Source: an uncultured Nitrososphaeraceae archaeon
Lineage (GTDB): Archaea > Thermoproteota > Nitrososphaeria > Nitrososphaerales > Nitrososphaeraceae
DNA: 44,119 nt
Assembly: GCA_963837175.1 (NCBI GenBank)
Contig: CAWIMJ010000037.1
Span: 1-44,119 of the forward strand
Direction: 5' to 3'
Under the pieces are notes generated by a model that searched no databases, was not told where the DNA came from, and saw only the letters and a program-made list of their open reading frames with translations. Position numbers and translations under genes: made by a program. Positions within the stretch are counted from its first letter, which is position 1. Each line of letters begins with the position of its first letter. Shown here in pieces: positions 1-22,633 of this stretch.

Positions 1-481
1 TCCCCTTATCATATAGACGAAACCACAACTCAGATAGGTAACAATGATGCATGGCTATTGGTAGCAATAGAACCCTAGTCATCATCAAATTCTCTGTGTT
101 TATATGTCAAGGCTAGGCAATATGTTAGTTGCAGAGATATTCTTGATATCATTGATTAAACTTTATGGAAAACATGTTGTCTATTCTGATGATGCAGGAC
201 CATGGTACCATGAAGCTTATAATTCTGTTGGGATTAAATATAAACTACATATGTCATTTGAAAAGTGCATTATTGAAAGGGCTATGGAGTATGTCAAGAA
301 TAGAACCGAAGACTTTGACTATTGTCCATAAGTGTAAAGAAAGCAATAGATTGTAACCAAATACATGCCTACCATTGGATGATAGTGTTTACATGTCTAC
401 ATAACCTATCAGATCATATTCTGACTCTGGCCTTCTTAAATACTTGGCAGGTGGTAAAAACAAACCTTAACTTAACAGAAC
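1..481 (+). mobile_element. Degenerate IS6-family element (transposase pseudogene, right end; runs off window)
   Basis: Reads IDETTTQIGNNDAWLLVAIEP* then SRLGNMLVAEIFL..YGKHVVYSDD..WY..IIERAMEYVKNRTEDFD, the archaeal IS6 DDE pattern broken by a stop and frameshifts. Ends in IR-like CCTTAACTTAACAGAAC (465-481). Confidence 0.85.
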
Positions 482-530
482 TGGCATCCTGAAGGAAAAG
501 AAGAAATATATCTAGCATTGATGGATAATT

Positions 531-1046
531 ATGGTATCAGTAGTTAATAATTCAATCAGGAGAATAATAATATTATTTCCCATTGTTGCTATTATCTCAA
601 CTCTACCTTTATTACATGGGACATTTGCTTATCATGGACAAGAAATTTCATTGGTATTAAATTCGGCGGACTTCACATCACTTTCTACAAACAAAACTGG
701 TAACCAAGTCAGAGTGTTTGTAAATTATACTGTTAATGACCCTTCAATAGATAGTCAAACTATTAATTCTGTTATGAAAGTCTATAGTCCTAATGGAACA
801 TTGCTTAAAACATCTTCATCACCAAATGGATTTACTATCAATAACACTGGAGTCCAACGCCATTCAACTACCTTAACTAATAGTATTATACAAAATATTT
901 CAGCAGTTGTGCAATTTACTGATGTATCAAAGATAATACCTCTATCAAATTCAGTAGTTGTCAAACTTAACTTGGCAAATTCTTCTACAGCAATAAAACC
1001 AGAGGATAAAAAGCCTGCAATTGCTTCATTACCACCGCCGTCATAA
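531..1046 (+). CDS. Hypothetical secreted protein
   Basis: 171-aa ORF with N-terminal hydrophobic signal ending TFA and an S/T/N-rich beta-type body. Confidence 0.75.
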   Translation: MVSVVNNSIRRIIILFPIVAIISTLPLLHGTFAYHGQEISLVLNSADFTSLSTNKTGNQVRVFVNYTVNDPSIDSQTINSVMKVYSPNGTLLKTSSSPNGFTINNTGVQRHSTTLTNSIIQNISAVVQFTDVSKIIPLSNSVVVKLNLANSSTAIKPEDKKPAIASLPPPS

Positions 1047-1458
1047 TACTACTATTGGAAAGCACTGTATTTGGGAATCTGCACGCACAATATCAATTTT
1101 TTTTCTTAATAGATTAGGCAAAAAATAGGCAGATTAAACTATTATAATTAAGTGTTTATCATAAATCATGCTATATGATCATGTTATAAATAGGAGTTGA
1201 TAATAGTATCACATTATTCGTTGAAAGAATATAAAAACATTAGATCGCCATAACTAATTCTTGTTGGCACTCTTTTCTATTTTCCACCATTATATGTTTA
1301 CTTTTATATTTTTCTGTATCTTCATTATTGTCTTGCATCATTGTGGATCTTCATAATTGTTTACTTTCTAATATTTGTCCGTGATTAAATACTAAAAGTA
1401 CTACTGCTGTATTACGCTTATTAAAAATGTGTTTATTACATATGCAACTACAGGGTAA

Positions 1459-1574
1459 TATACTGCCTAACATAATTTCGTATATCTTTTAAAACCAAGT
1501 AAAAGGATTTTTTAAGCATAGTAAACCTTACATATTAAGAAAAATCTGTAAACGAACTTTTGTTAGTTAGTATA
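1459..1574. mobile_element. MITE copy 1 (112-bp core plus flanking TA; IS630/Tc1-like ends)
   Basis: Matches 25863-25978 with 2 mismatches. Imperfect terminal IRs TATACTGCCTAACATAATTTCG / TATACTAACTAACAAAAGTTCG. Confidence 0.9.
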
Positions 1575-1749
1575 GCTAAACCCCATTATTAAATTTAAAA
1601 AGCAAAGTTATATTATTATTATCATTATTGAAAGATGATTTTTTTGTTTGCAATATCTTGTTATCTAAAACCAATGCATTTTTATACATAAATTTTTGTG
1701 TTCATATTTTATCAGTAAAGATTTTAAATCTAAATGTTGTTGAGGTGTT

Positions 1750-1890
1750 ATGATGATAGGTGCAACATTCTCTTGTAATTGTTGTAAAATAAAATTTCAA
1801 GTAATTGGAATATCCACCAAAAACGAACCTAAGTATTGTCCATACTGTGGTGTGAATTCCATAGAAACCTATAACATTATTCTCTGTTAG
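1750..1890 (+). CDS. Small CPxCG-type zinc-ribbon micro-protein (46 aa, not in ORF track)
   Basis: MMIGATFSCNCCKIKFQVIGISTKNEPKYCPYCGVNSIETYNIILC*, preceded by SD-like GAGGTG (1742-1747). Confidence 0.75.
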   Translation: MMIGATFSCNCCKIKFQVIGISTKNEPKYCPYCGVNSIETYNIILC

Positions 1891-2005
1891 TCGTTATTCG
1901 CCAGTCTTGGAAAATTATGCATTAAAATATTCAGTATAATTTAATGAAGGGAATTTTGCATTATAAAAATGAAAGTGGTTACTACTACTTACCTACTATT
2001 TAGTA

Positions 2006-2650
2006 CTACTTTACAATAATTCTTCCAGTCATCCATGGATGGAAAATACATATGTAATCATAATTTCCTGCTTTTTTAAATGCTGCACTAAATGTAGTTA
2101 TAGGTGGGATTCCTGGTAGTATTTGTCCTGCTGGAAGTATCACACCTGAATTAACATACTTTTCAGTTCCATCTATTTCATATAAAGCATTTGGATTCAG
2201 GTATGTGACATTATCAGTTGAATCAATTACAACTGGATAAAATCCTCTTGCATCTAAAGCCGCTATAACATTTGTTCTATTTGTACCATTACCATTAGGT
2301 ATTACTACTGCTTCACTATTAGCCCCTGGAGGCAAGGGTATGAATTGTGTTGAGTCGGAAACAGCAAAGGGTGCAATTATATCTGTCATATATTTATTAT
2401 CCCTTACAAAGGTAACTGTATGCGGCTCTGACACCTCTGTAGGATTATACCAAGTTACACTTTCACCTACATTGATTTGTACGTCCTTCGGTAAAAACCG
2501 ACTAAATGAAATAGTAGCATTTCCTCCTCCAGCTTGTACTACTTTATTTGCAGTCTCTTCTCTTGTTGCGTTTGTGGTATTAATATGCGTCATCATTACA
2601 AATACTATTGTAACAATGACAATGAATGCCAATATTCTCTTGTAATGCAT
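2006..2650 (-). CDS. Secreted or membrane-anchored cupredoxin (plastocyanin-like blue copper protein)
   Basis: Signal anchor; VGESVTWYN..EPHTVTF and YDYICIFHPWMTG supply type-1 Cu ligands H, C, H, M. Confidence 0.92.
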   Translation of the reverse strand: MHYKRILAFIVIVTIVFVMMTHINTTNATREETANKVVQAGGGNATISFSRFLPKDVQINVGESVTWYNPTEVSEPHTVTFVRDNKYMTDIIAPFAVSDSTQFIPLPPGANSEAVVIPNGNGTNRTNVIAALDARGFYPVVIDSTDNVTYLNPNALYEIDGTEKYVNSGVILPAGQILPGIPPITTFSAAFKKAGNYDYICIFHPWMTGRIIVK

Positions 2651-2714
2651 ACTATATCGGTGATTGGGATTATATATTATAAGAATTATTCATGTATGAA
2701 AATTATAATATAAT

Positions 2715-2951
2715 CTACCTCAGCAAATGTATATATTTTCTCTACAGATTACGTTAGCATTGTACATGGTGGATGTGATATCATCATGTATTGGAGGGAT
2801 AATTTTATTTATATATGGAATTGTTCCTACTCTTCTACCAATGCATTTTATAATAAGGCTGCACTTTCACCAATAAACCAAGCAAGCCTTGCCAACTCCA
2901 CTTGGCGTTGACTAGATAATTGGTAGATATATGGTATGTATGTGACATGCA
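2715..2951 (-). pseudogene. Probable eroded gene remnant (His-rich thaumarchaeal protein)
   Basis: Minus-strand fragments resemble HIH..., PIHDD, IHHVQ and YTFAE but are broken by stops and frameshifts. Boundaries approximate. Confidence 0.3.
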
Positions 2952-3186
2952 TGAGATATAACCAAACAAAGTTACAAAAGACATCAAAAAAAGCAAACCA
3001 GAAAAGCAATTTACTTAATGGTTTTTAAATGGGGGAAAAAATGGCACGCTGACTCTTTCTTTAATGTTGTGAGCGTTATTATATTTAGAATGAATCCTTA
3101 GACATTTTTGCAAATGCCTCCCCAGTTTTTCTAAGCTCCTCAGGAGACAGAATCTTACTAATGGGTTTTCACCAGTAAATCCTGAA

Positions 3187-17067: not shown

Positions 17068-17676
17068 ATGTTTACAGGCATCATAGAAGGTGTTGGCGAG
17101 GTAAAATCAATTTGTAAAATTAAGGGCATAAACAAGAGAGCTGATACCAAGCTAACAATATTTTTAGGAAAGATAATCAAAGGTATGAAGGTTGGCGATA
17201 GCGTCAGCATTAATGGAGCCTGTCTAACTATTACAAAGATATCCAAAGGAACAGCTGATTTTGAGATCGTAGATGAAACTATCAAACGTACTTGTCTTGG
17301 TTTAATTAAAGCTGGAGACACAGTAAACATTGAGAGAAGTCTACGTCTATGTGATAGGTTGGAAGGGCATATTGTTCTCGGCCATGTAGATTGTACAGGA
17401 ATGATTGACGAAATTATTAAAACTCGGACAGGGACACATATGTGGATAAGAATTGAAGATAGAGAACTTTCAGGTTCATTCGTATCGAAAGGATCGTTAG
17501 CAATAGATGGCATAAGTCTCACTATAGTAAATGCAAAAGATGATAGAATATCTGTTGCTTTAATACCACACACACTAACTACCACTACATTAGGATCTAA
17601 ATCTAAAGGCAACAAAGTTAATATTGAAATAGATATAATTAGTAGGTATGTAAGTAGTATACTACTAAAAAAGTAG
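17068..17676 (+). CDS. ribC: Riboflavin synthase (bacterial-type, two lumazine-binding domains)
   Basis: N-terminal MFTGII, GDSVSINGACLT, GHIVLGHVD and GSLAIDGISLT. Confidence 0.96.
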   Translation: MFTGIIEGVGEVKSICKIKGINKRADTKLTIFLGKIIKGMKVGDSVSINGACLTITKISKGTADFEIVDETIKRTCLGLIKAGDTVNIERSLRLCDRLEGHIVLGHVDCTGMIDEIIKTRTGTHMWIRIEDRELSGSFVSKGSLAIDGISLTIVNAKDDRISVALIPHTLTTTTLGSKSKGNKVNIEIDIISRYVSSILLKK

Positions 17677-17730
17677 TAATAACTTGATTTTTAGTAAACT
17701 ATATAATGAATTCTTGTGAAAATTACTTAA

Positions 17731-18414
17731 TTGTCTGTAATTGAAGAAGCAATAGATACATTAAGTGATGGCAAATTCGTGCTAGTTCATGATGATAAAG
17801 GACGCGAGAACGAAATTGACATGATAATAGCAGCTGAATATATTACACCGAAGAATATTGCAACTATGAGAAATGACGCTGGAGGATTACTTTGTTTAGC
17901 TATTTCAAATGAAATTACGACCAAATTGGGACTAACTTATATGCACGATATAATCCAAAGCCTATCAAGCATTAATCCTGTATTTTCAAAATTAACCTAT
18001 GGAAAAGCGCCATACGGCGATAAACCATCTTTTTCAATAACTGTTAATCACCGTGATACATACACTGGAATTACAGATATCGATAGAGCATTGACAATCT
18101 CTAAGATGGCAGAAATTTGCAAAAAAATAGATTCAGGTGGAGTGGAGGAATTTGCAAAAAACTTCCGTACTCCAGGTCATGTCCCAATTTTGATTGCTTC
18201 AAAAGGTTTGCTTGAAGAAAGGCGTGGACACACTGAGCTTTGCGTTTATTTAGCACAGATGTCAAAACTAGTGCCAGCAGTAGTAATTTGCGAGATGTTA
18301 GATTCCACTACCCATAGAGCATTATCAATAAACAAAGCAAAAGAATATGCCGATATTAAGGGAATTACATTATTGGAAGCTGGTCAGTTAAAGACTCATG
18401 CCAAGGCGGCTTAA
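17731..18414 (+). CDS. ribB: 3,4-dihydroxy-2-butanone-4-phosphate synthase
   Basis: DDKGRENEID, TGITDIDRALT, FRTPGHV, RRGHTE and VICEM. Confidence 0.97.
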   Translation: MSVIEEAIDTLSDGKFVLVHDDKGRENEIDMIIAAEYITPKNIATMRNDAGGLLCLAISNEITTKLGLTYMHDIIQSLSSINPVFSKLTYGKAPYGDKPSFSITVNHRDTYTGITDIDRALTISKMAEICKKIDSGGVEEFAKNFRTPGHVPILIASKGLLEERRGHTELCVYLAQMSKLVPAVVICEMLDSTTHRALSINKAKEYADIKGITLLEAGQLKTHAKAA

Positions 18415-18420
18415 TAATAA

Positions 18421-18885
18421 TTGAATAAAGTTAGAATAGCAATAATAGTTTCAGAATTTAATTGTGATATTACTTTTCAAATGCTGAACAAAGCAAAAGA
18501 TCAGGCGCAAAAAATCAAAGCAGATGTACGTTACATTTGTTTTGCCCCAGGTTCGTTTGATATGCCATTGTTAATTGAAGAGATTTTAAAAAAGAAGGAT
18601 GTAGATGCTGCTGTTACGTTAGGTGCTGTAATAAAGGGCGAAACATCTCATGACGATATTATTGCAGAAAATGCAGCCAGGCTGATCGCAGACTTGTCTT
18701 TAAAATATGGCAAGCCGATTGGGCTTGGAATTACTGGCCCAGATATGACCCTTGAACAAGCAAAAGACAGGATCGATATAGTACCACTGCGTGCAGTAAA
18801 TGCAGCAGTAAACATGGCAATGAGAATTAAAAAATTAAAAGAAGTAGGATCGCAATCAGAAAGAACAGAGATGATAATAGATTGA
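18421..18885 (+). CDS. ribH: 6,7-dimethyl-8-ribityllumazine synthase
   Basis: IIVSEFN, PGSFDMP, LGAVIKGETSHD and KPIGLGITGP. Confidence 0.97.
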   Translation: MNKVRIAIIVSEFNCDITFQMLNKAKDQAQKIKADVRYICFAPGSFDMPLLIEEILKKKDVDAAVTLGAVIKGETSHDDIIAENAARLIADLSLKYGKPIGLGITGPDMTLEQAKDRIDIVPLRAVNAAVNMAMRIKKLKEVGSQSERTEMIID

Positions 18886-19673
18886 CAATCCAGATTACAA
18901 TTATCAGAATTGACGGATATGGAGTATGGACTGTTACCCTGGGAACAGATAGAGAGGCTCAGCTTCAAATGCTGCAGGCAAGAATTTATTATGATCTACA
19001 GCGATTGTTTTCACAAAAAGAGTGTCTTGTATATTTAAATAGATTTGATGAGTATTTTGCAATAACTAATGGTCTTTCATTAGAGGACCATAAGGATATT
19101 CAGGAAGAGATAGCAACTCTATATAAAAACCTTAAGATATCAATGACTATCGGAAGAGGCGATACACCCTTTGATGCAAATGTAAATGCTTACGAAGCAA
19201 GGAAGATAGATAATTTTCTGGATAGAGAAACAAGAATTTTTGGACAAACTATATCTTCATCTTCAAAATCATCATCTACTACAAATCCTAATTACTGTGA
19301 ATCTGCATACATAATGCATATTGATATTGATGGTTCTGAAAAAGTTAGCTCTAAAATGTCGCCATATGAAGTTACAGCGTTAGTAATGAAGCTCTATGCT
19401 AAGTTATCAGAGGCATTTCTTAAAAAAGGAGCAATGACATTTTTTCTCGGAGGAGACAATTTCATGGTTATATCAAATAATATGAGAAAAGCAGATACCG
19501 AGATAATTATTAACTCTATTACTAATGATATAGGTATAAAATTGAATTGTGGAATAGGTGTAGGAAGGAACGGAAGAAAAGCTGCTGAGGCTGCCACCAG
19601 AGCATTAGATACCATTAGAGATTTAAGAGATAAAGGAAAAATTCAGCAAATATATGAAATACAATGTCTCTAA
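18882..19673 (+). CDS. gch3: GTP cyclohydrolase III (ArfA)
   Basis: IDGYGVWT..LGTDREAQLQMLQ, RFDE, HIDID and FFLGGDNFM. Confidence 0.95.
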   Translation: MTIQITIIRIDGYGVWTVTLGTDREAQLQMLQARIYYDLQRLFSQKECLVYLNRFDEYFAITNGLSLEDHKDIQEEIATLYKNLKISMTIGRGDTPFDANVNAYEARKIDNFLDRETRIFGQTISSSSKSSSTTNPNYCESAYIMHIDIDGSEKVSSKMSPYEVTALVMKLYAKLSEAFLKKGAMTFFLGGDNFMVISNNMRKADTEIIINSITNDIGIKLNCGIGVGRNGRKAAEAATRALDTIRDLRDKGKIQQIYEIQCL

Positions 19674-20938
19674 TACTCGAGAATGCAAGCTTATTGCTTG
19701 GAAAAGATCTAACTTTTGTCAACAATGGTTTTATTGAAATTAAAAAAAATGGAATAATAAAGAAAGCTGGAGAAGGAAACTATCGTGAGATTATCGACAA
19801 AGAAAGAAACGTTATAGATGCAGAGGGATTTTTGATAATTCCCGGATTTATTAATGCTCATACACACATAGGAGATTCAATTGGTAAAGATTTCCTGATT
19901 AGTTCTGGGTTAGACGAAAGAGTTAATCCTATTTTTGGAGCAAAAAGGGACATTTTGCAAAAAAGTAGCCCAGATCACCTCAAGATATTCATGAGAAGCT
20001 CAGCCATATCAATGATGAAAAAGGGAATAGTTGCTTTTGCAGACTTTAGAGAAGGAGGCATAGAGGGCGTAAAACTTCTAAAGGCTGCGATATCTGATCT
20101 TCCAATTAAATGTGTAATACTTGGTAGACTTGAATATTATTTTAATCAAATAAAAAAGGAAATGATACATTCTGAATTAGAAATAGAACAAAATGACAGC
20201 AAACTTTCTTCAAATTTACTGCAAATGACTTCTGATATTTTAAAAATAGCTGATGGACTAGGAATCAGTGGTGCAAACGAAAATACTGATGAATCACTTA
20301 TGCAATATAGAAAATTATTACAAAACAAAAATAATAAAGAAAACAGGAAACTATTGATTGCAATTCATGCTGCAGAGTCTAAATATACAAATGAGGTATC
20401 CAAATCAAAAACAGGCAGGACCGAAATAAATAGAATAATGCAATATTTAAAACCTGACATTATTGTTCATATGACTAATGCTAATGAAGAGGATGTTTCT
20501 ATCGTAGCAAAGAACGGAATTGGAGTAATCGTCTGCCCTAGATCAAATGGAATACTAGGAGTCGGGATTCCAAAAGTCGCAAGAATGTTAAAACTAGGAT
20601 GTACTATTGGTATAGGAACAGATAATGTTATGCTAAATTCTCCTGACATCTTTAGAGAATTGGATTATTTATGGAAGGTATCACGGGCAACGGAACCAGA
20701 ATTCATTAGTCCCAGGGAAATACTTATGATGGCTACAGTAAACAATGCTAAAATCCTCGGGCTGAATTCTGGCTATATAGAAAATGGACGATCAGCAGAT
20801 TTATTATTTATCGACAAGAATCATATTGATCTGTATCCAATTCATAATCCCTACGCATCAATAATTCATAGAGCGAGTCAGGATTCAATCAAAGCTGTGA
20901 TGATAAATGGCAAGTTTATAGATGGAGCAGATATCTAA
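19664..20938 (+). CDS. Metal-dependent amidohydrolase (deaminase subtype) in the riboflavin operon
   Basis: PGFINAHTH, HAAE, VHMT, CPRSN and GTDN. Overlaps both neighbours. Confidence 0.92.
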   Translation: MSLILENASLLLGKDLTFVNNGFIEIKKNGIIKKAGEGNYREIIDKERNVIDAEGFLIIPGFINAHTHIGDSIGKDFLISSGLDERVNPIFGAKRDILQKSSPDHLKIFMRSSAISMMKKGIVAFADFREGGIEGVKLLKAAISDLPIKCVILGRLEYYFNQIKKEMIHSELEIEQNDSKLSSNLLQMTSDILKIADGLGISGANENTDESLMQYRKLLQNKNNKENRKLLIAIHAAESKYTNEVSKSKTGRTEINRIMQYLKPDIIVHMTNANEEDVSIVAKNGIGVIVCPRSNGILGVGIPKVARMLKLGCTIGIGTDNVMLNSPDIFRELDYLWKVSRATEPEFISPREILMMATVNNAKILGLNSGYIENGRSADLLFIDKNHIDLYPIHNPYASIIHRASQDSIKAVMINGKFIDGADI

Positions 20939-21590
20939 TTTGCAAGTATTGATTAATGCCGCTATGACAATTGATGGCAAAATTGCGACAAATCTTGGTG
21001 ATTCTGCAATTTCTTCAAAACAAGATTTAAGAAGACTTCATAGGTTGCGATCTTCTGTTGATGCAATTGTTATCGGAATATCAACAGTTATTGTGGATAA
21101 TCCAAGACTCACTGTAAGACTGGTTAAAAGATATGGAACAACCCCTGTGAGAATAATAATAGACAGCACAGGAAGAATACCTCTTGATTCAAAAATTCTA
21201 AAAAGCGCATCTAAAATCAATACAATAGTAGCAGTAACGAGCAGAACATCTGACAAGAGAATTGATAAAATTAAGAGTGCGGGTGCAATGGTAATTGTTG
21301 CAGGAGCAAGAACTGTTGATTTAAAAGAGCTATTTTGTATTCTTAAAAAGATGGGATTTAACAAGATACTCGTTGAAGGAGGTGGAGAATTAAATTGGTC
21401 AATCCTTCAATTAGGAATCGTGAATGAATTAATGGTAACAGTTGCACCCAGAATAGTAGGTGGGAGAACGGCAACTACCTTAGTAGAGGGAGATGGATAT
21501 ACAAGAATCTCAGAGAGTATAAAAACGGAATTGATAAAGATTTCAAGACAAAACAATGGAGAGATAATGTTGTATTATAAATTAGTATAA
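20922..21590 (+). CDS. arfC: 2,5-diamino-6-(ribosylamino)-4(3H)-pyrimidinone 5'-phosphate reductase (RibD C-terminal domain only)
   Basis: AAMTIDGKIA, LHRLRSSVDAI, DNPRLTVR and LVEGGGELN. No deaminase domain. Confidence 0.93.
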   Translation: MEQISNLQVLINAAMTIDGKIATNLGDSAISSKQDLRRLHRLRSSVDAIVIGISTVIVDNPRLTVRLVKRYGTTPVRIIIDSTGRIPLDSKILKSASKINTIVAVTSRTSDKRIDKIKSAGAMVIVAGARTVDLKELFCILKKMGFNKILVEGGGELNWSILQLGIVNELMVTVAPRIVGGRTATTLVEGDGYTRISESIKTELIKISRQNNGEIMLYYKLV

Positions 21591-22105: not shown

Positions 22106-22633
22106 TTATAATCTATTATTTCTTAAGGATATATCTAATGTTATCTGTTCAATCTTATATCGTAATGCTTCCTTTATCTTACTATTGTCGACCATATTGA
22201 GCGGTCCTTTGCAATTAGGGCACTTGAAAAATGATTCAACAGCAGCATCAAATTTTGTTCTAGGACAATCTTTATTTCCACAATGATAGAACTCAGAGGA
22301 TTCTTCATATTCTAGACGTTTTTCCAATCTATCGAGAATTTTTTTCTTTTGATTATCGATAAAATTATCAATTTGATCACGTTTCGCTCGCCATCTATAT
22401 ACAAACCATCCTTTCTTCTCATCCTTTACTCTTATACCGGTAATTAGCGCTTTACCAAACATATCGTAAAGAACTTTTCTTATAATATTTATTCTTAGAC
22501 CAGTGGCGCTTGCGATTTCTTCATCGGTTGCATCTTCTGTATTTAAAAGTGCACGAGCAACCTTAAGATATTCTTCTCCTCCAATTAGACCTGCAATTTT
22601 AACAAAAGAATCTTCATACTCGACTGAGTGCAT
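22106..22633 (-). CDS. tfe: Transcription factor E (TFE alpha)
   Basis: wHTH ATDEEIASATGLRINIIRKVLY, GWFVYRW, and zinc ribbon CGNKDC...FKCPNC. Confidence 0.96.
   Translation of the reverse strand: MHSVEYEDSFVKIAGLIGGEEYLKVARALLNTEDATDEEIASATGLRINIIRKVLYDMFGKALITGIRVKDEKKGWFVYRWRAKRDQIDNFIDNQKKKILDRLEKRLEYEESSEFYHCGNKDCPRTKFDAAVESFFKCPNCKGPLNMVDNSKIKEALRYKIEQITLDISLRNNRL

Follow-up and report, generated by a model that had tools for sequence, protein, structure and literature searches.

We report a candidate for the pyrimidine deaminase of archaeal riboflavin synthesis, encoded in a stretch of 44,119 nucleotides (the window) from an uncultured Nitrososphaeraceae archaeon (GenBank assembly GCA_963837175.1, contig CAWIMJ010000037.1, positions 1 to 44,119 of the forward strand). 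The window has six consecutive + strand genes at 17068-21590, in the order ribE-ribB-ribH-arfA-AH-arfC (Table 1), where AH stands for an amidohydrolase gene and its product. We consider it likely that AH is the pyrimidine deaminase of the trunk shared by archaeal riboflavin and F420 synthesis, and that it deaminates 2,5-diamino-6-ribitylamino-pyrimidinone 5'-phosphate. Linkage to the genes of the pathway in several different orders, the signature of its active site and the failure to find a RibD-type deaminase domain in the genome all point in this direction. They uphold the deaminase part of the preliminary description, which had been made from the letters of the window; its other part, that AH replaces the deformylase ArfB or carries out both reactions, was not supported.

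The idea itself is not new. According to Rodionova et al. (2017, PMC5397151), who credit the proposal to Osterman, Overbeek & Rodionov 2010, an archaeal pyrimidine deaminase candidate named PyrD was put forward from its clustering and co-occurrence with riboflavin genes, and Pfeiffer & Dyall-Smith (2021, PMC8305020) place HVO_2483, whose role they list as a prediction and which is 34% identical to MJ0699, for which the same role is predicted, among the remaining riboflavin gaps. Thus, context-based predictions of the kind that the preliminary description suspected to exist were in print in 2010, 2017 and 2021. A deaminase role for the AH family is also carried in the SEED annotation, and the present result is a rediscovery with added comparative support: it supplies a clean example, apparently coupled in translation to its neighbors, together with comparative evidence from across the Thermoproteota.

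The amidohydrolase and its active site

AH matches the Pfam family Amidohydro_1 over residues 58-418 (E 8e-46). On the NCBIfam model NF005552 (PRK07213), which bears the label 'chlorohydrolase', it scores 338.2 bits (cut-off 294) over model positions 3-378 of 382, and it is the only protein of its own genome to pass that cut-off. By comparison, it falls far short of the equivalog models for guanine deaminase (TIGR02967, 75.6 bits against 375), 5'-deoxyadenosine deaminase (NF005557, 114.8 against 522), MTA/SAH deaminase (NF012037, 80.8 against 779), 8-oxoguanine deaminase (NF006055, 96.3 against 532), and the aminofutalosine (74.4 against 320) and HutF/formiminoglutamate (66 against 413) enzymes. 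The protein has neither the creatininase domain PF02633 nor the deaminase domain dCMP_cyt_deam_1 (PF00383), nor does it match the ArfB equivalog NF033501.

A search with AH among 1.84 billion cluster representatives returned 204 proteins at E <= 1e-30, and 65 of the best, with identities down to 27%, were aligned. Ten residues are invariant in this alignment, H66, H68, D71, G121, H235, E238, H269, G318, D320 and N321; they include the HxH, HxxE, H and D-N motifs noticed in the preliminary description, present as H66-x-H68, H235-x-x-E238, H269 and D320-N321. In the amidohydrolase superfamily the HxH motif follows strand 1, HxxE follows strand 5, a histidine follows strand 6 and an aspartate follows strand 8, and an invariant HxxE is the signature of its ring deaminases and dechlorinases. 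An AlphaFold2 model of AH built from the 65-sequence alignment (pLDDT 93.1, pTM 0.93), confident except in a loop at about residues 160-180 and at the final residues, shows a predicted (beta/alpha)8 barrel and N/C-terminal beta-sandwich. The model has at least 500 PDB fold matches at E <= 0.001 (top TMq 0.75-0.83), and the nearest solved folds all belong to the mononuclear deaminase/dechlorinase subgroup: 4gbd (an MTA/adenosine deaminase), AtzA, Vcz, TrzN, TM0936 and guanine deaminases, at sequence identities of 14-21%. The isocytosine deaminase Vcz reaches a TMq of 0.83 and the guanine deaminases 0.76-0.79. By its fold and motifs, AH is assigned to the mononuclear deaminase subgroup (COG0402-like) of the superfamily.

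Databases label AH 'chlorohydrolase' or 'cytosine deaminase'; a protein-atlas look-up places it in archaeal 'amidohydrolase' and 'chlorohydrolase' clusters, and its named homologues come from Nitrososphaeraceae and related ammonia-oxidising archaea. The triazine chlorohydrolases AtzA and TrzN are the source of 'chlorohydrolase', which is an inherited label: among PDB sequences it is AtzA that AH matches best (E 7e-24, about 20% identity), AtzA is also among the top fold matches, and no context of AH points to triazines. AH is some 30-40 residues longer than its Nitrosopumilus orthologues (about 394-398 aa) and about 40 above the 382-position NF005552 model. Most of the extra length lies in charged, low-confidence loop at residues ~157-185 and 215-230 (pLDDT 50-61).

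Beyond the catalytic motifs, the family carries residues of its own, which were derived from the present data set and are not a published definition. D71, K94, E130, R293 and N321 occur in all 19 family rows compared, from ten family-level groups of Thermoproteota, and most members also keep E332 and R403, including those of groups f11, f13 and f23 that are not linked to riboflavin genes. Two loci scoring about 110 bits on NF005552 are PRK06038-type paralogues; used as outgroups, they carry M, L, F, V, G, T and S at these seven positions. K94, E130, R293 and R403 are family-specific among the sequences compared, and at D71, after the HxH motif, the aligned AtzA has Q and a P. aeruginosa deaminase M. 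The conserved basic residues K94, R293 and R403 suggest themselves as candidates for holding a 5'-phosphate.

No other candidate for the step was found in the source genome. Its assembly (58 contigs, 91% complete) has five Amidohydro_1 matches, AH included, and the remaining four are a urease alpha subunit, a Xaa-Pro-dipeptidase-like protein, a dihydropyrimidinase/allantoinase-like protein and one protein without an NCBIfam match at E 1e-10; judged in this way, AH is the only deaminase-type amidohydrolase found there. A single gene of the cytidine-deaminase fold is present, with ComEB/dCMP deaminase as its best NCBIfam match and no RibD match, and no RibD-like deaminase domain was found in the genome. 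ArfC does not supply one: as the preliminary description had it, and as the domain search confirmed with a match to RibD_C only, the arfC product is a stand-alone reductase corresponding to the C-terminal domain of RibD, with no deaminase domain and no PF00383.

Linkage to riboflavin genes in Thermoproteota

A scan for related loci from a 15-sequence alignment, with one genome per species, kept 80 loci of 590 confirmed stretches. All 80 come from Nitrososphaeria, including Nitrosopumilus, Nitrosopelagicus, Nitrosotalea, Nitrosocaldus and Nitrososphaera, and the six proteins of the window were placed on them by tblastn. The six-gene arrangement is not a product of chance, because the complete order ribE-ribB-ribH-arfA-AH-arfC is found in 68 of the 80 loci and 11 others, which end at a locus or contig border, show the same order as far as their sequence reaches. 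The sole locus without arfA (L044, a Nitrosopumilaceae record, about positions 1-3000) reads ribE-ribB-ribH-AH-arfC, with a gap of 45 nt from ribH to AH. These loci are kin with one ancestral operon and were counted as one observation.

The wider comparison drew on 151 genomes of the phylum, the source genome among them, each with a completeness of 80% or more. Above its cut-off NF005552 gives 23 matches, in 19 of 20 genomes of the same taxonomic order, in all three genomes of the family-level group f3 and in the source genome; the twentieth same-order genome scores 264 bits, and matches of 120-212 bits occur in several further families. GTP cyclohydrolase III (PF05165, GCH_III) was found in 50 of the 151 genomes, every one of which has an NF005552 match at E <= 0.001, a non-specific count since paralogues match too. 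The best match lies about 100 nt or less from GCH_III in the source genome, in all 20 same-order genomes, in all five f19 genomes and in the single f31 genome; in one f4 genome and one f18 genome the distance is within 2 kb, which brings the count to 29 of the 50. One of the same-order genomes (G115) has two GCH_III genes (C19:48658-49353 and C9:5396-6088), one in the operon and the other on a separate contig.

Twenty loci were fetched and their 192 open reading frames (ORFs) scanned against Pfam. The order is ribB-ribC-ribH-arfA-AH in four f19 loci and arfA-AH in f31, while in f4 AH is divergent from ribB-ribC-ribH-arfA and in f18 it closes the series arfC-arfA-ribB-ribC-ribH-AH, followed by a convergent creatininase gene. 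Elsewhere AH keeps company with arfC: as AH-arfC in f27, where one of the two loci has cofG and cofH on the other strand; as arfC-AH in f34; and in f3 either as AH-arfC-cofG-cofH-flavin reductase or as AH-(one gene)-arfC-radical SAM. For the AH proteins of the linked loci NF005552 is the best or only NCBIfam match (95-376 bits). The preliminary description had let its proposal hinge on conserved linkage to rib genes, and AH is linked to arfA and/or arfC, in differing gene orders, in nine family-level groups of Thermoproteota.

Family members returned by name come from Asgard, Bathyarchaeia and Nitrososphaeria. The NF005552 model also finds matches in M. jannaschii and H. volcanii, which are among 14 control genomes; its cut-off is passed in two of the 14, not necessarily these. 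In f13 (L097 and L098) AH stands without rib neighbors. A gene for a DUF2208 membrane protein lies divergently beside the rib cluster in f19 (L084-L087) and beside AH at these two f13 loci; the adjacency may go back to an older arrangement or reflect a functional partner.

Proposed reaction and competing explanations

The data establish the existence of the gene, the class of its fold, the residues of its active site, the family to which it belongs and the conservation of its linkage; we infer the substrate, the metal, the roles of the residues and the order of the steps. ArfA would open GTP to a 5-formylamino-pyrimidine nucleotide, a formamidase of the creatininase fold, encoded at another place in the genome, would take off the formyl group, and ArfC would reduce the ribosyl side chain to ribityl. 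AH would then hydrolyse the 2-amino group of 2,5-diamino-6-ribitylamino-4(3H)-pyrimidinone 5'-phosphate, yielding 5-amino-6-ribitylamino-2,4(1H,3H)-pyrimidinedione 5'-phosphate and ammonia, and the dephosphorylated product would pass to RibH, with the RibB product, and to CofG/CofH for F420. The chemistry may be that of guanine, isocytosine and cytosine deaminases, in which case one divalent metal on H66, H68, H235 and D320 would activate a water, E238 and H269 would shuttle protons, the water would attack C2 of the 2-amino-4-oxopyrimidine ring, and ammonia would leave. In the superfamily the HxH pair, the histidine of HxxE and the aspartate after strand 8 are the metal ligands, and the glutamate of HxxE and the histidine after strand 6 are the proton shuttles. 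The ribityl form is the expected substrate because reduction comes first in archaea, as work on M. jannaschii ArfC established (cited in PMC5397151); the ribosyl form is also possible. Fungal Rib2 takes the same ribityl substrate, and fungi and archaea alike reduce before deaminating (PMC12542839, PMC13028884).

AH shares its fold (TMq 0.76-0.83) and its HxH/HxxE/H/D set with guanine, isocytosine (Vcz) and 8-oxoguanine deaminases, and its proposed chemistry would take place on the same ring edge, the substrate being in effect a ring-opened guanine nucleotide. It differs from these enzymes in being only 14-20% identical to them, in equivalog scores far below the cut-offs and in its proposed substrate, a phosphorylated ribitylamino-pyrimidine rather than a free base. 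The N-terminal domain of RibD and fungal Rib2, in contrast, carry out the very step proposed for AH with an unrelated cytidine-deaminase fold. If the assignment is correct, the cytidine-deaminase fold has been displaced here by a non-orthologous amidohydrolase barrel, and the AH family closes a gap left open ever since the 2000s, when the archaeal pathway was worked out. Deamination is the sole chemical step of archaeal riboflavin/F420 precursor synthesis for which no assayed enzyme is known; the phosphatase is the other gap. In the available portions of two recent reviews of riboflavin, no gene is named for an archaeal deaminase (PMC12542839, PMC13028884).

AFRPP (2-amino-5-formylamino-6-ribosylamino-pyrimidinone 5'-phosphate) is deformylated by enzymes of the creatininase fold, ArfB of M. 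jannaschii and BrbF of S. meliloti (PMC9478397). AH belongs to the same pathway as these enzymes and is a neighbor of the same genes in some archaea, but differs from both in its fold and proposed reaction. PF02633 was found in 117 of the 151 genomes, including all 50 with GCH_III, a count that is non-specific, the family being common in genomes without GCH_III too. The source genome has two creatininase-family genes, whose products score 38.1 and 22.1 bits on NF033501, a narrow ArfB equivalog with a cut-off of 180. In f18 (L090:7557-8249, - strand) a creatininase gene abuts a rib cluster that also contains AH, its protein having no ArfB-equivalog match at E 1e-10, and in an f27 genome (G119) a creatininase gene adjoins arfA (C112:122-844 and 1116-1853), with AH beside arfC on another contig. 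These rib-adjacent genes lend support from context to an ArfB-like function of diverged homologues. From their occurrence in the rib contexts of f18 and G119, we conclude that the AH and creatininase families coexist there and do not replace one another.

Three entries in the source genome (C16:143343-144017, L001; C16:146858-148063, L106; C56:40036-40725, L002) comprise its creatininase-family genes and the dihydropyrimidinase/allantoinase-like amidohydrolase, and one of the creatininase genes lies about 2.8 kb from that amidohydrolase.

With this in mind, it seems to us quite improbable that AH is the formamide hydrolase of the pathway, deformylating the ArfA product AFRPP in the place of ArfB. 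The gene does follow arfA directly, with overlapping reading frames, in most linked lineages; both creatininase proteins of the source genome fail the ArfB equivalog; and the superfamily has enzymes acting on formimino or formyl groups, with HutF models matching AH weakly. Such a replacement is not needed, because a creatininase-family gene is present in every sampled genome with GCH III, and the two families are found together in the rib contexts of f18 and G119. Moreover, AH stays beside arfC where GCH III was not found, that is, without the only known source of the formylated substrate, and its invariant HxxE is typical of ring deaminases and dechlorinases. These results led us to set aside the claim that AH replaces ArfB, and the same evidence applies equally to the notion that AH is bifunctional, both deformylating and deaminating. 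The latter would account for the place of the gene between arfA and arfC and could draw on the weak ArfB-equivalog scores of the creatininase homologues in the same genome; with a single domain, a single metal site and the ArfC step separating the two reactions in the pathway, we regard it as very improbable. A reading of AH as the phosphatase missing from the pathway was rejected on the deaminase active-site signature.

Alternatively, AH may be a deaminase with another substrate, such as guanine, isocytosine, a pterin, 8-oxoguanine, or a damaged or side-product pyrimidine of the pathway, and may owe its place in the operon to salvage or damage control rather than to a step of biosynthesis. 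A published form of this idea makes it the 'cytosine deaminase' of creatinine degradation in Thaumarchaeota: Haber et al. (2021, PMC7848895) take the COG0402 gene of Thaumarchaeota for a cytosine deaminase and read it, along with a creatininase homologue, as a sign of creatinine degradation. The fold neighbors of AH do act on many substrates, and in f13 and f11 the gene is unlinked to rib genes. That AH fails every named deaminase equivalog, is linked to arfA/arfC in different orders in nine family-level groups, is the only candidate for the required deaminase found in the genome and carries family-specific basic residues that suggest a phosphorylated substrate nevertheless makes this alternative unlikely. 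If AH and the creatininase homologue are both riboflavin-pathway enzymes, the creatinine-degradation inference for Thaumarchaeota (PMC7848895) is wrong, and that reading of the two genes may be a mis-annotation.

A separate question is raised by five genomes, 92-100% complete, that keep AH adjoining arfC: three of f3, one of f27 and one of f34 (loci L091, L092, L093, L096 and L094; genomes G002, G116, G028, G087 and G147). GCH_III, GCH II (ribA), ribH and ribB gave no match in any of the five; GCH_III and GCH II gave none in the M. acetivorans control genome either. All five match GCHY-1 (MptA/FolE2-type), the only GTP-cyclohydrolase-like family found among those looked for. In two of the loci cofG and cofH are near the pair, after arfC at L093 and on the opposite strand at L096, and an exact match gives the f3 protein the name Bathyarchaeota. 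Retention of AH and arfC beside cofG/cofH in what appear to be riboflavin auxotrophs fits an enzyme that would make 5-amino-6-ribitylaminouracil phosphate, the precursor shared by riboflavin and F420, although by itself it would also be compatible with deformylation. One tentative possibility, which we would hold with considerable doubt, is that AH and ArfC form a self-standing module making 5-amino-6-ribitylaminouracil phosphate, which after the loss of riboflavin synthesis persists by cofG/cofH as a module for the F420 (Fo) precursor. An enzyme or a side activity not yet recognised would then have to supply the diaminopyrimidine nucleotide, and AH would bring its superfamily into flavin and deazaflavin biosynthesis for the first time. 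Directly upstream of AH-arfC-cofG-cofH at L093 lies a gene of the dCTP-deaminase/dUTPase fold (L093:3480-4028), not conserved at L091 and L092, which probably encodes an ordinary dCTP deaminase.

Several points weigh against the assignment of AH to the deaminase step. Gene context alone fails to separate deamination from deformylation or dephosphorylation, and we favor deamination because of the class of the active site, not because of the context. In 21 of the 50 genomes with GCH_III (13 of f11, 5 of f13, and G093, G114 and G119), the best family match lies elsewhere, on another contig or at an unlisted place. The retention of AH and arfC without a known GTP cyclohydrolase leaves room for another substrate of the pair in those genomes. 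The linkage sample is one of Thermoproteota, whereas the printed prediction is tied to two Euryarchaeota, M. jannaschii and H. volcanii; the printed PyrD/MJ0699 family is presumably that of NF005552, which fits its description, and MJ0699 and HVO_2483 are putative members. A maximum-likelihood tree of 35 family members and two PRK06038-type paralogues, which had only a quick tree search behind it, is unresolved, with 12 of 34 inner branches open; its outgroup has a long branch (1.88) and falls next to the thaumarchaeal clade within a fork that the tree leaves open, so that monophyly is neither shown nor refuted, and the signature residues were used in its place. Finally, no biochemical or genetic test of any member of the AH family was found in the literature searched, most subscription journals being outside its coverage, in keeping with the statement in the preliminary description that no biochemical proof was known.

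Operon layout and putative flavin control

The cluster, in a window of about 33% G+C, opens with ribE, whose product has two lumazine-binding domains. The ATG start of AH sits 10 nt inside arfA (overlap 19664-19673) and that of arfC 17 nt inside AH (overlap 20922-20938); both overlaps, as given in the preliminary description, were borne out by the ORF coordinates and the letters at the junctions. They present the usual picture of genes predicted to be translationally coupled, and the start codon of AH is backed by homologues that align from residue 1-4.

Table 1. Genes of the riboflavin cluster and operator-like palindromes (TTAC-N10-GTAA) in the window
Feature	Position	Strand	Assignment or match
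ribE	17068..17676	+	bacterial-type riboflavin synthase; PF00677 E 5e-41; NF006767 205 bits vs cut-off 155
palindrome at ribB start	17723..17740	.	matches predicted RbkR consensus
ribB	17731..18414	+	PF00926 E 8.5e-55; TIGR00506 210.6 bits vs cut-off 177
ribH	18421..18885	+	6,7-dimethyl-8-ribityllumazine synthase; PF00885 E 7e-34; TIGR00114 124.9 bits vs cut-off 84.6
arfA	18882..19673	+	GTP cyclohydrolase III; GCH_III PF05165, E 1.2e-57, 195 bits
AH	19664..20938	+	424 aa, candidate archaeal pyrimidine deaminase ('PyrD'); NF005552 338 bits vs cut-off 294
arfC	20922..21590	+	2,5-diamino-6-ribosylamino-pyrimidinone 5'-phosphate reductase; PF01872 E 2e-48; TIGR01508 rib_reduct_arch 210.6 bits vs cut-off 186
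further palindrome	2596-2613		
further palindrome	18614-18631		
further palindrome	22426-22443		
further palindrome	22452-22469		

RNA-library contigs that fall on the operon are short only (150-436 nt, 90-100% alike) and come from relatives in soil and sediment. One X2 RNA contig spans the arfA/AH junction (19582-19800) and one the AH/arfC junction (20575-20988). We did not count them as evidence of expression: they are relatives' contigs, a single transcript is unprovable from them, and DNA carry-over is possible.

The predicted thaumarchaeal operator consensus of the riboflavin regulator RbkR is TTAC-N10-GTAA (Rodionova et al. 2017, PMC5397151). Exact copies number 5 in the window against 0.95 expected from shuffles, and one of them lies at the start of ribB. 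Of 70 related loci, 54 have a palindrome between -120 and +30 relative to the ribB start, against a background of 0.10 per kb, and none was found upstream of ribE in the related loci scanned. The source genome also has a gene with an RbkR-type CTP-dependent riboflavin kinase domain. If the palindrome is functional, the genes from ribB to arfC, AH included, would probably be under flavin-responsive control. Table 1 of Rodionova et al. (2017, PMC5397151) lists PyrD in the RbkR regulons of 15 genomes, and the place of AH in a putative flavin-regulated unit agrees with this listing. AH resembles PyrD, whose family is presumably NF005552, in passing the cut-off of that model over its full length, in clustering and co-occurring with riboflavin genes and in lying downstream of an RbkR-type operator-like site; apart from its greater length relative to the NF005552 model, no functional difference between the two is apparent. 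The last two palindromes of the window are 8 nt apart and lie inside a TFIIE-alpha-like ORF (22106-22633, - strand).

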